DNA from: an uncultured delta proteobacterium
Lineage (GTDB): Bacteria > Desulfobacterota > Desulfomonilia > UBA1062
NCBI GenBank assembly: GCA_963785235.1
Contig: CAWAUM010000012.1
Location: 235,995 to 299,994, forward strand
DNA: 64,000 nucleotides
Direction: 5' to 3'
In this document: positions 43,251-58,776 of the stretch, one piece after another
Position numbering within the stretch: the stretch's first letter is position 1
Layout: every line of letters starts with the position of its first letter
The notes under the pieces: model-generated
What the model was told of the DNA's origin: nothing
Database searches by the model: none
Seen by the model: the letters and a program-made list of their open reading frames with translations, nothing else
Program-made: the position numbers and the translations under genes

Positions 43251-43529
43251 CCCGAAATAGCTGCCATCCATGAAGGTACATTGATAGATATTCAAATGAA
43301 AATGTATAATTTTTCCACTAAGCATAGATATAATTCATCTAATAAATTACCTATAGTTCTTCAAAGTAGATCTGATAACTACTAGATTTAAAAAGATAGA
43401 ATAATGCTAAGCATCAAGTTATATGCTTATCATGTTATAAAATGATCATTACCAGGCTCGGCACTATGAAAAGGATAATAAACATCATCGGCAGTTTTTC
43501 CATAAGATTGTCTGGTATTCATCATGAAG

Positions 43530-43956
43530 CAGCTCACGCCCTTTCGCTCCACTTCCATTACATTTCTTCACTACGGTACGGGCTGATCGCCCTTGCAGCT
43601 CGCATCGGTTCGTCTTCCTGTGTCCTCCATTTGGACTTCTTCCTTGCATCAGACACCATTCCCACGTTCCGCATGAAAGCCTGTATCAGGCTCGCGCCAC
43701 CTTTCTGCCGGCCACCATCTGGGCAGTAAACAGAGTTCCCCCACACTCTATCCCCGATAACAAACCCGTTTCGATGACTCTGTATCTTTTCGACAGCTCA
43801 TCAGTGGTTCACTCTACGTTCGCCTTCCCTGGTCCGTACCTGATCCAAGATCTTGCCTCGCCTTTTCCTGGTCCGCATCACACCTGGGACTACCTTACAG
43901 CAAAATATCCGGTCCACGTGCCGCATCTATGGCTTGGTGCAACCTTCGTGGCGCAC
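43530..43956 (-). mobile_element. Degenerate group II intron fragment (domains I-III, internal deletion, no DV/DVI)
   Basis: Starts GTGCGCCACGAAGG; long stretches nearly identical to 57512-58023; retains EBS1 GTTATCG; 5' exon ends CTGCGATAAC. Confidence 0.85.
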
Positions 43957-56319: not shown

Positions 56320-56364
56320 TATGCCTTCGTAGAGGCTTATACGCATAGGGTCCGACACAAGATC

Positions 56365-56413
56365 TTCAGTTTTCAGACTTCCTAAAACTGAATAGAAAGC
56401 GCAGTTATCTTCA
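56365..56413. repeat. Degenerate ~50-bp direct repeat, copy A
   Basis: TTCAGTTTTCAGACTTCCTAAAACTGAATAGAAAGCGCAGTTATCTTCA; similar to 58728-58776. Confidence 0.6.
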
Positions 56414-56731
56414 CCGTGGCAGAACCCAGTGATACTTACCTTTAGGCTTAGCTGTCTTCATCTGCCTTTCTCTGGCAGTATTTGCAAACCTACTGATATA
56501 TCCCATTTTTCCCTGCCACTTGAGCATCTCCCTGCAACACCATACAATATCATCTTTGAGATCACATTGGATTTCACTTACCAGCTCTCCATTCTTGAAC
56601 AACTGGCAGTGGTATTTCCCTGCTATGGTGGTTACCTTTACTTCATGTTTAGGCTCAACATACTCTTCCAGATGTTTTTTCTGTTTGGCAATATGTCTTC
56701 TGATAAATGATGCTATGTCTTTGATATTCAT
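56411..56731 (-). CDS. Hypothetical protein (AT-rich island)
   Basis: 106-aa ORF with GAAAGGTG RBS; no recognised motif. Confidence 0.55.
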   Translation of the reverse strand: MNIKDIASFIRRHIAKQKKHLEEYVEPKHEVKVTTIAGKYHCQLFKNGELVSEIQCDLKDDIVWCCREMLKWQGKMGYISRFANTARERQMKTAKPKGKYHWVLPR

Positions 56732-56871: not shown

Positions 56872-57144
56872 TCATTGACCATTGCATTTATATTGTTTTT
56901 TCATCCGGAAGATTGTGAAATGAGTAGGACAAGTGCAAAATTGATTAGAGCCGTAACTTATTCGATATGAACAATTTTCAGGTTCTTTAGACTTTAGGTC
57001 TAAGACGTAAGGTTCAATAGCATAGTTAACTTTACACATCTTGTGTTCACCACACATGCCAAATTCCAGGCAGGAGAATGAGTGGGGGCACTTGGTTGTT
57101 ACATTTAAGATCTCAACAGGCACAATAATAGACATATATTCCAT
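56872..57144 (-). CDS. Small cysteine-rich hypothetical protein
   Basis: AGGAG RBS; C-x5-C-x5-C-x5-C ... C-x11-CTCP pattern. Confidence 0.6.
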   Translation of the reverse strand: MEYMSIIVPVEILNVTTKCPHSFSCLEFGMCGEHKMCKVNYAIEPYVLDLKSKEPENCSYRISYGSNQFCTCPTHFTIFRMKKQYKCNGQ

Positions 57145-57347
57145 CTCCTATACAACAATGAAATAGCATATTATAAGGCTATGAATATCATTAATATAAA
57201 AATTGATCAAGCTCCTGTGCCGAAAATTCAGCCGGAGTTGGAATCGATCCAAGGTTTCGTGTCACAGGACACGCTCTGGCATAAAGTGATAATCTACATG
57301 TGTTTCAGCCTAAGATAATCGGTTCTAGGGTCTTTAAAAAGCGCCAA

Positions 57348-58023
57348 GTCGAGTAGCGCAGGGGAATCGCACCCCCACGCCCTCACAGAACCGGACGTGA
57401 GACTCTCACCTCATCCGGCTCCTACTGTCCAGTCGCAGGTATTATACCAAACGACTTTGCCTTATCCATAAGCTCCTCCCATTGCTGGTTTACTCATAAA
57501 TAAGGTTGTACAGCTCAGCCCCTTCGCTCCACTTCCATTACAGAAGTTTCTTCACTACTACGGGCTGATCCGCCCCTGCGCTCTGCATCGGTACTCTCGT
57601 CTTCATGGGGCCTCCACTTCGACTTCTCCCTTAGCATCAGAGCGCCAGGTTCCCACGTTCCGCATGAAAGCCTGTACCAGGCTCGCGCCACCTTTCTGCC
57701 GGCCACCATCTGGGCAGTAAACAGGTTCCCCCCAGACTCTGTCCCGGGCCCGATAACAAAGCCCGGTTTCGATGACGTCTGTATCTTTTCGACAGCTCAT
57801 CAGTGGTTCACTCTCGTTCGCCTTCCTGGTCCTCACCTGACAAGGTCTTGCCTCGCCTTTTCCTGGTCCGCTCACCACCTGGGATCTTATCCCCACGCAG
57901 CGCCAGGCGGTTTGGGATCTGATCCTGTAACCCGATCCCGAGGGGCCTCCCCTCATCTTCCATGCAGCATGGCTGCTCCAATGTAGCCCTTACAGGCTAC
58001 TTCTTCGCGCCTTCGTGGCGCAC
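57348..58023 (-). mobile_element. Complete ORF-less group II intron (IIB, class D/RmInt1-like architecture)
   Basis: 5' GTGCG; DV GAGCCGGATGAGGTGAGAGTCTCACGTCCGGTTC (57421-57388) with AGC triad; DVI ending ACTCGAC; EBS1 GTTATCG pairs with 5' exon CGATAAC; DIV holds only an RBS and MDKAKSFGIIPATGQ*. Confidence 0.92.
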
Positions 58024-58036
58024 GTTATCGCAGTGA

Positions 58037-58534
58037 TCATAAAAGGTAGCCTATTTGGAGTGTTATGAAATTTTCACTGAAGTTCGATGTATCTGTCCAA
58101 TGGAATATCCCTTTCCCGTTAGAGAAGTGTTTATAACCAATCGAAAAGTCATATTTTTCTGTCCTTATGCCCAGTGCAGATCGGAACGCAAACTGAAGCC
58201 GTGTGCCTAGGTTGCTTGTAGTCCTTCTAAGGTAAGCACCGCCGGGTTCTAAGGAGATATACATTTTTCCATACAGGTTTATCCATATACCCTTGGTAAG
58301 AATGAGTGCATTGTTGTGATCCGGTCCATTCCATGATCCGAATGCCACATCATAATAACTTTTAAGACCAAATAGTTGTGGTGAATCTATTTGATAGCTG
58401 AGAAATATGGTCTGGGAATCTGTGGAGTAATATATACCCTGGCCACCTTCAAGAAATACGCCATCGGCGTATGCCGGTGTGGAGCAATAGAGAAGCACGG
58501 GGATAAGTACCGCAATCCAAATTCTCAAGCACAC
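58037..58534 (-). CDS. PagL-like lipid A deacylase / acyloxyacyl hydrolase beta-barrel
   Basis: Signal peptide, LGTRLQF, YKHFSNG (H-x-S-N), terminal IGYLL beta strand. Confidence 0.75.
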   Translation of the reverse strand: MCLRIWIAVLIPVLLYCSTPAYADGVFLEGGQGIYYSTDSQTIFLSYQIDSPQLFGLKSYYDVAFGSWNGPDHNNALILTKGIWINLYGKMYISLEPGGAYLRRTTSNLGTRLQFAFRSALGIRTEKYDFSIGYKHFSNGKGIFHWTDTSNFSENFITLQIGYLL

Positions 58535-58727
58535 TATCCTTAATAAATCCTAGGAAGTCAGATAAACATTTAAGTAATAATCTTGTAACCATCTGATATC
58601 ATTAATTTCAGCTTTCTGCAAACTGACCTTTGCAGGGTATTACACAATGATTTGGTCAAAACTGATGGGTGACAGAACCAGCTCTCTCACCTGTAGCCTG
58701 AATACCATAGATTAAAAAAACAATATA

Positions 58728-58776
58728 TTCAGTTTTCAGCCTTCTCAAAACCGTGACGATATCGCAGTTATATTCA
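58728..58776. repeat. Degenerate ~50-bp direct repeat, copy B
   Basis: TTCAGTTTTCAGCCTTCTCAAAACCGTGACGATATCGCAGTTATATTCA. Confidence 0.6.

Follow-up and report, generated by a model that had tools for sequence, protein, structure and literature searches.

Group II introns without an open reading frame (ORF) are rare in bacteria and are nearly always accompanied by a related intron-encoded protein (IEP) in the same genome (PMC4424553, PMC3245105). The ORF-less TeI3 introns of Thermosynechococcus elongatus are mobilized by "driver" IEPs of ORF-containing relatives, and the family includes twintrons (Mohr, Ghanem and Lambowitz 2010; PMC2882425). Class D ribozymes from which the ORF has been deleted (delta-ORF) splice and retrohome when the IEP is supplied separately (PMC4615759), and C.te.I1 of Clostridium tetani is described as the sole bacterial ORF-less intron known from a genome without any IEP (PMC4424553). 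Here, we describe an ORF-less intron in a 64,000-nt stretch of the genome of an uncultured deltaproteobacterium (G000:C12:235995-299994; hereafter the window, in which positions are counted from the first nucleotide). We consider it very probable that the element, a 676-nt sequence at 57348 to 58023 on the minus strand, is a non-autonomous RmInt1-like (class D/IIB) group II intron that arose from a parent of ~1.88 kb encoding a reverse transcriptase (RT), spread in trans and is now stranded.

The ORF-less intron and its RT-encoding parent

The intron (copy A) starts with GTGCG at 58023 and ends with GAC at 57348, the ends having been set by comparing its flanks with those of a second copy in the same genome (copy B). 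At Rfam gathering thresholds, the full models RF01999 (group-II-D1D4-2; 106.1 bits, E 7.7e-21) and RF00029 (domains V and VI, DV/DVI; 62.9 bits, E 5.4e-10, gathering score 40, model positions 1-77) both matched, and because of these scores the intron signal is well past chance level. An earlier note on this DNA had read a group II intron here from the letters alone; every sequence feature that it listed was found on the minus strand by direct reading, and the search with group II models that it proposed gave the matches just described. The only other Rfam matches in the whole window at gathering thresholds were two tRNAs, and DV scored 50 bits against the plastid DV model RF04357, below its gathering score of 53. 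Group II introns begin with GUGYG and end with AY, and their DVI contains an adenosine that is bulged out 7-8 nt short of the 3′ end. Copy A has the DV and the terminal sequences of the group, as well as the bulged A, which lies at 57354, 6 nt ahead of the last base of the intron.

We searched for the intron in 60 related genomes and in its own, and obtained matches in 11 of the 61. In what follows, G002, G003 and G004 are congeners, G051 is a relative, and L numbers denote extracted loci. Congener G002 contains two full-length loci that are ~93% identical to copy A over intron positions 1-580. The parent IEP has 417 aa, starts with MDKAKSFCISKR and ends with LWSLGIKPSAGQ (LGIKPSAGQ), and its stop codon stands directly before DV. 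The full-length, RT-bearing parent that the earlier note had postulated thus exists, in two copies and with IEP termini that match those of the remnant. When the parent L026 was aligned with copy A, 1206 nt (402 codons) were absent from copy A, in frame; as had been proposed, an internal deletion joined the first IEP codons to the last ones. The junction lies between 57449 and 57448, where codon 7 (TTT) meets the G codon of GIKPSAGQ, the last eight codons being kept. The product is an ORF of 15 codons (57422 to 57469, minus strand; ATG at 57469, TAG at 57424-57422) that reads MDKAKSF-GIIPATGQ followed by the stop (MDKAKSFGIIPATGQ). In the parent, AGUCG (codons 5-6) is able to pair, as read by eye, with CGGCU at the end of the ORF, so that the deletion would have taken out the loop of the DIV stem and left its base. 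A remnant DIVb hairpin, in which AGUCG…CGACU closes GGUA-UAA-UACC, is predicted at 57431 to 57456.

Upstream of the junction lies a DIVa-like hairpin (57460 to 57505), which holds the Shine-Dalgarno sequence GGGAGGAG (57480-57473) and the AUG (57469-57467). That this hairpin was retained through the deletion, as had been claimed, is borne out by its covariation among the relatives: it (helix 25) has 15 pairs, of which eight changed on both sides, and the full-length introns from G002, G051 and Sinorhizobium meliloti have it too. The IEPs of the relatives, or their remnants, start with MDKAKSF, MDRAKPY, MSQAKPF or MSIAKPS. Binding of the IEP at this hairpin had also been suggested; the hairpin fits such a role, and we infer that the IEP of this lineage may bind there.

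The junction was found in two variants of equal length. Type 1 (…GTCGTTTGGTATAATACCTGCGACTGGACAGTAG) retains the 15-codon ORF; in type 2 (G002, L057 and L032), 9 of the 16 loop bases differ, a small hairpin is still formed, and the stop codon is lost. Selection on the 15-residue peptide was considered and rejected, because the type-2 copies, read by eye, continue as MDKVKSLCSLQTTGRQEPDE… with the stop codon lost. Judged from sequence, the 15-codon ORF is a by-product of the deletion, and its peptide is not conserved.

The G002 parent (L026/L042, G002:C18:1258-5079) is itself a twintron, in which a second intron of ~1.9 kb lies inside the DVI of the outer one. The inner intron begins with TTGCGCC, matches RF02005 (D1D4-6) and encodes an IEP that shares 35% identity with that of the parent; past it, the outer DVI and its …CTACTCGAC end resume. 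The same arrangement was seen in L032.

The fold of the ribozyme was derived from an alignment of D1 to DIVa in 13 natural sequences: nine of the ORF-less copies together with the G002 parent, a more distant ORF-less intron from G003 (71% identical), and the full-length introns of G051 and of pSymA in S. meliloti. The consensus comprises 164 pairs. As many as 98.2% of the cells were paired, compared with 35.7-44.5% when partners were slid; 70 of the 164 pairs changed on both sides, compared with 7-18 with slid partners, and none of 500 shuffles matched the observed values of pairing and covariation. The intron has, therefore, a six-domain structure with covariation. Domain I extends from 57653 to 58018 (intron 6-371; placed by the consensus fold and covariation and labelled by analogy with the six-domain plan) and contains the RF01999 match at 57835-57954. 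Helices 18-21 of the fold probably represent domain II (57572 to 57652, intron 372-452), and helices 22-24 domain III (57515 to 57568, intron 456-509). The 34-nt DV (GAGCCGGAUGAGGUGAGAGUCUCACGUCCGGUUC), a hairpin with the 2-nt bulge and the catalytic triad of the group, occupies 57388 to 57421, directly 3′ of the stop codon, and DVI 57348 to 57384, both on the minus strand and placed by the RF00029 alignment; the DVI stem (helix 640-652/660-673) covaries, with six compensatory pairs among relatives.

A fold of the whole intron that includes DV and DVI, for which the ORF was removed by script from the full-length relatives, has 193 pairs. Copy B and most other ORF-less copies keep all 193, and copy A keeps 190. 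The word "intact" in the earlier note is, thus, justified by a nearly full fold but slightly generous, given that 3 of the 193 pairs of copy A are non-canonical and its sister has none. Because of these pairs, and because copy A is the sole deviant from all other copies at five of the eight A/B differences, it looks slightly decayed. It is nevertheless a genuine, well-supported non-autonomous group II intron.

The presence of RT and X/maturase without D/En was assessed on the parent IEP of the congener (P0001). Pfam assigned RVT_1 to residues 68-288 and GIIM to residues 315-392, with no other domain of note and no D/En, and the NCBIfam model TIGR04416 scored 433.7 bits (cut-off 300). The protein is 61.6% identical to a 419-aa IEP of S. 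meliloti pSymA, the intron of which matches the same Rfam D1 model as copy A (123 bits); its best plasmid matches, 58-64% identical, are from Bradyrhizobium, Sinorhizobium, Neochlamydia and others. Class D IEPs have the C-terminal motif LX3AX3PXLF[V/A]HW (PMC4615759). The parent IEP reads L-GRI-A-KRN-V-D-L-F-V-L-W and agrees at six of the eight fixed positions (P is replaced by V, and H by L), the G051 relative (LQRIARRQPGLFAHW) at all eight and the S. meliloti relative at seven. Because of the lack of an En domain, the identity with the S. meliloti protein, the shared D1 model and the six motif positions, the intron and its parent IEP are likely to be of bacterial class D (IIB3) and RmInt1-like. 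The idea that the S. meliloti comparator is RmInt1 itself was rejected, as it has 1861 rather than 1884 nt and is inserted in another RT gene. Two full-length relatives, L009 (near 1869, G051) and L065 (near 962, S. meliloti pSymA), are inserted in the YADD-coding bases of other RTs, at …TATGC(T/C)GACGAC(A/T) followed by GTG…, and have thus homed into the ORF of another intron.

Copies at other sites and the target repeat

Copy B (C5:565386-566060) is 98.8% identical to copy A, from which it differs by seven substitutions and one indel. Their flanks have only the 10-nt target in common, together with a loose repeat likeness (~19 of 29 bases on the 3′ side, by our own count). Further ORF-less copies of 675-676 nt were found in G004 (one, 96% identical) and in G002 (four, 92%). 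A junction-spanning pattern was searched in metagenome contigs and in 185,579 species genomes other than the own one; it occurred at only the same five G002 and G004 loci among the species genomes and in eight metagenome contigs that represent at least six different sites. L058, L061 and L064 occupy one shared site, L060 is truncated at its 5′ end, and L063 is cut at a contig end. The earlier note had proposed to look for other copies with the same deletion, and such copies exist: one is copy B, at a second locus of the own genome, and the rest come from two congeners and from metagenome contigs. Their sites differ but have the intron-binding site (IBS) motif in common; the ORF-less derivative occupies ~12 different sites in three genomes and the metagenome contigs. 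The full copies all lie at …CT(G/T, once A)CGATA(A/G)N with T as the first base of the 3′ exon. Orthologous insertion sites across species were considered and rejected, given that the flanking genes do not match.

In copy A, the exon-binding site EBS1, GTTATCG (57757-57751), lies in the loop of the hairpin 258-264/274-280 and is complementary at seven of seven positions to CGATAAC of the exon (58030-58024), in agreement with the perfect 7-bp EBS1-IBS1 pairing noted earlier; copy B likewise pairs over 7 of 7 bp. The 5′ exon target TCACTGCGATAAC (58024 to 58036, minus strand) comprises IBS2 and IBS1. Of the 12 copies in which the first EBS1 base was read (that of L062 was not), 9 have a base that fits exon position −1: a first G pairs with C in copies A and B of G000 and in L059 (three of four G copies), and a first T pairs with A in G002 a-d, G004 and L061 (six of eight T copies). 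A candidate EBS2, AGAUA, may lie at 57786-57782 (intron 238-242), and the variant AGUUA of G002_b, c and d matches the IBS2 UAACU at all five positions. As in TeI3, then, remnants with preserved ORF termini lie at multiple sites with fitting EBS/IBS pairs. The same deletion at different sites, combined with base-pairing to the target, argues that the ORF-less RNA itself was inserted, with protein supplied from elsewhere.

The window contains a decayed third copy at 43475 to 43956 on the minus strand, where the 5′ exon …CTGCGATAAC is followed by GTGCGCCACGAAGG (GTGCGCC…). The first 14 nt are kept, positions 15-150 are scrambled, and positions 140-513 are 87% identical; this copy is without DIV to DVI, and no Rfam match was obtained in the stretch.

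The target lies within a dispersed intergenic repeat of ~110-165 nt (core …GATCTCTGCGATAAATGGGTGCTTT..AAATGCCCTAAAACCGATGATCTTGG…), for which 46 nhmmer matches at E<=1e-3 were obtained in the own genome. The repeat clusters regionally, for example at C5:541-574 kb and C13:26-40 kb. Near the intron, the matches are all on the minus strand: at 58705-58775, at the intron site itself (57269-57349 and 58024-58036) and at 56337-56388. The 3′ exon (57269 to 57347) is the rest of one repeat copy, as shown by an nhmmer match (C12:293263-293343, E 4.8e-16) and by alignment to other copies. The location of the target motif inside the repeat explains why the intron lies 13 nt behind a PagL-like gene (58037 to 58534, minus strand; 165 aa; Pfam PF09411, 36.3 bits, cut-off 23, E 7.5e-9). 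Two repeat copies, one at C3:502645 and one at 425308 on the minus strand of C5, contain no intron at their CTGCGATAAC followed by TT, a sequence that agrees in all 10 nt and has T at +1.

The repeat had no Rfam match, is not palindromic and gave no consensus structure; its DNA showed no excess folding relative to shuffles (z −0.94 to +0.04), and its orientation relative to neighbouring ORFs, by crude ORF calling, is not fixed. For these reasons, and because the repeat does not adjoin the integron integrase of this genome, an attC or integron cassette reading of the repeat was rejected. The integrase is encoded outside the window, at G000:C12:115401-116339 (TIGR02249, 464 bits, cut-off 265), and other palindromic repeats of ~130 nt lie at C12:102.3, 130.6 and 133.3 kb. 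Downstream of the intron and on the same strand are two small ORFs, 56872-57144 (90 aa, Cys-rich) and 56411-56731 (106 aa); both of them, like the PagL-like gene, lie between repeat copies.

A second ORF-less family, 71% identical, is represented by L008, L017 and L022 in G003 and by L018 (G004:C45). Its members start with GTGTG or GTATG, and the remnant ORF reads MSIAKPSYTIG and a stop. Its insertions lie in the dispersed repeat that also hosts copy A, and are on the other strand (…GATCATCGGTTTT followed by GTGTG).

Proposed trans-mobilization, probable present state and alternative explanations

We propose that the deletion removed the DIV loop, and hence the central IEP codons, and would have spared the DIVa hairpin with its ribosome-binding site and AUG, a stem made of the first and last ORF codons, and the complete catalytic RNA. 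An IEP made by a full-length relative would then have acted in trans on the shortened RNA, first splicing it and afterwards reverse-splicing it into DNA at sites recognized through EBS1, EBS2 and EBS3, which would pair with the motif …CT(G/T)CGATAAN (followed by T) of the dispersed repeat. The two full copies and the decayed one are most likely stranded today; they would be transcribed with the PagL-like gene, but would be immobile and probably poorly spliced or unspliced. Of this account, the anatomy, the parentage, the copies at several sites and the covariation are observed, and the movement in trans, the joint transcription and the present lack of mobility are deduced.

No RT was detected in the own genome (93% complete, 13 contigs): PF00078, PF08388 and TIGR04416 each gave 0 matches, two protein queries, the parent IEP among them, also gave 0, and tblastn at E<=10 returned noise only. 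A related IEP is co-resident in G002, in two copies, and none was found in G000 or in G004, the best IEPs of which are 35-38% identical. G003 (100% complete) has five DV/DVI matches over the cut-off, and its best TIGR04416 score is 144 bits, compared with a cut-off of 300. The earlier proposal that the intron could be spliced or mobilized in trans is, thus, supported for the past by the parent IEP and the copies at multiple sites, but not demonstrably for the present, since the assembly has no RT. Because none is detectable, the copies in the own genome are probably stranded now; the two empty perfect target sites and the decay of the third copy are further signs of immobility. If the absence of RT holds, this intron would be a second kind of exception to IEP co-residence, and stranding would be its simplest explanation.

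As had been noted, the intron and the PagL-like gene share a strand, with 13 nt between the stop codon (TGA) of the gene and the start of the intron; a simple terminator scan from this codon to the intron detected no terminator-like site. Co-transcription of the intron with the PagL-like gene is, therefore, plausible.

Several observations weigh against the preferred reading or parts of it. In a maximum-likelihood tree of the ribozymes, the full-length copy nests within the ORF-less copies; the bootstrap support is 100 for the enclosing clade and 74 for the grouping of the full-length and type-2 copies, with several other nodes low, and L032, L058, L060, L063, L064, truncated copies and the S. 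meliloti intron were left out. Because of this nesting, a history with a single deletion is not established, and the alternatives are either recurrent deletion or recombination between copies. One possibility is that loss of the ORF is recurrent and guided by structure, with cuts that fall at the foot of the DIV stem, which would fit the two junction variants of equal length and the nested full-length copy. Target pairing is also imperfect: L057 and both full-length G002 copies have an EBS1/IBS1 mismatch at exon −1, and the EBS2-IBS2 fit is poor in copy A (3/5) and 4/5 in copy B. An RT-bearing copy could be missing from the incomplete own assembly. A contig of DNA run X1, which may be the source sample, has a DV at least 92% like that of copy A and diverges near 57425 into an apparent IEP C-terminus (…QLGIVPEAG, read by eye); on this evidence, an ORF-bearing relative appears to be present in that sample, in this organism or another. 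Lastly, no splice joints were seen at the contig level in one DNA and three RNA runs over 56900-58600.

One could envision that the ORF-less lineage persists in RT-less genomes (G000 and, for the 71% family, G003) and is now independent of an IEP or co-opted, for example through an extended −10 promoter at the junction (57468-57441) for downstream genes. We think this unlikely; if true, bacteria would here be seen on the way to group II introns that are domesticated or "splicing-only". As a replacement for the preferred reading, the notion of an independent or domesticated ribozyme, which self-splices without an IEP, relies on a host factor as proposed for C.te.I1, or has a host role as an outward promoter or RNA-processing element, seems to us distinctly improbable. 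It would accord with the failure to find an RT in the own genome and with G003, where five DV/DVI matches occur without an IEP over the TIGR04416 cut-off. It would also accord with the nearly complete fold of copy A (190 of 193 pairs), but recent copying explains the fold equally, since working ribozymes alone get copied, and the private changes that break three pairs in copy A, together with the decay of the third copy, look like drift. Within this region, the best match to a sigma-70-like promoter does arise at the type-1 junction (TGGATA, a spacer of 16 nt, TG-n-TATAAT, 10/12; 57468-57441, minus strand) and is directed at DV, at the 3′ exon and at the ORFs that follow. However, this is a consensus match only, 11 such matches were found compared with 5.2±2.2 in shuffles, and the type-2 junction of G002 is without the TATAAT. 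Metatranscriptome contigs from three RNA runs of two studies, sought over the same interval, contain intron sequence only, yet they are unlike copy A and reveal no starts and no splicing. Moreover, delta-ORF RmInt1 self-splices in vitro only at 100 mM MgCl2 with 500 mM ammonium sulfate (PMC4238363).

That the copies spread as DNA, the intron being carried by duplication or transposition of the repeat or by recombination between repeats, is very improbable. The likeness between copies does reach beyond the intron, by 10-19 nt on the 5′ side and by 29-51 nt on the 3′ side, all within one repeat family, but copies A and B, with 98.8% identity in the intron, are only about two-thirds identical in the adjoining repeat. 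Carriage as DNA is also difficult to reconcile with unrelated flanking genes, with insertion always at one phosphodiester bond of the target, with a first EBS1 base that follows exon −1 in most copies read, and with the many repeat copies that are empty. Hardly credible at all is an assembly artefact in which the cell does carry the RT ORF and the assembly lost it by collapse. The assembly has multiple contigs, and repeats often break or collapse, but the same junction is found at a second locus, in two other genomes and in eight metagenome contigs, and the decayed copy and the related ORF-less family also exist. In addition, a Logan unitig of run X1 (record 5, 57361-57497) bridges the junction, which speaks directly against the assembly collapse that the earlier note had named as its possible undoing.

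Comparison with known systems

No natural ORF-less class D intron of bacteria was found among the literature matches consulted, and one may still be in print. One genus of uncultured deltaproteobacteria offers a natural series that consists of a twintron parent, an ORF-less derivative, orphan copies without a detectable RT and a decayed copy, with the homing site located inside a dispersed repeat. This series supplies a natural minimal class D ribozyme, and could serve as a test bed for the origin of non-autonomous introns, for their survival after loss of the driver and for what a class D IEP needs in DIVa. Group II intron biology, as presently understood, is not altered by this locus. Archaeal and bacterial introns reportedly home into other introns, in work of 2003 attributed to Dai and Zimmerly; relatives of the present intron are nested in this way (the YADD sites of G051 and S. 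meliloti, and the inner intron in DVI of G002), whereas the copy in the window is not.

The Sinorhizobium class D (IIB3) introns RmInt1, RmInt2 and Sr.md.I1 resemble the present intron in several respects (PMC4615759, PMC5894124, PMC4238363). Their IEPs have ~417-419 aa without D/En, like the parent IEP; a C-terminal class D motif, which the parent IEP has in part, and target recognition by EBS1/EBS2/EBS3 are further points of likeness, and they home into repeated or mobile DNA and not into genes. The differences are that the Sinorhizobium delta-ORF donors were engineered whereas the ORF deletion described here is natural, that the T at exon −15, critical for RmInt1, is not conserved at the sites of this intron (PMC4615759, PMC5894124, PMC4238363), and that the parent IEP is only 61.6% identical to the S. 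meliloti IEP compared, with six of eight motif positions. C.te.I1 and this intron have in common that they are ORF-less and that no IEP-related gene was found in the genome. C.te.I1, however, lies within a gene, is reported to splice, also alternatively, and belongs to a complete genome, whereas the present intron is intergenic, belongs to a 93%-complete genome and is known from its sequence (PMC4424553).

The best parallel is provided by the TeI3 introns of T. elongatus (PMC2882425). There, as here, many copies with the same break-points occupy different sites with good EBS/IBS pairing, and twintrons are found in both families. TeI3 belongs to a different lineage, with an IEP that has an En domain, unlike the parent IEP here; the frame of its remnant is broken by an extra U, whereas the remnant described here is in frame; and its driver IEPs reside in the same genome, whereas none was found in this assembly (PMC2882425). 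The present family also differs from TeI3 in that it has two junction variants and a phylogeny that is not simply that of a single deletion. The mechanism and the type of intron are, therefore, known from TeI3 (PMC2882425), and the lineage, the target and the orphan status are the new details that this locus contributes.

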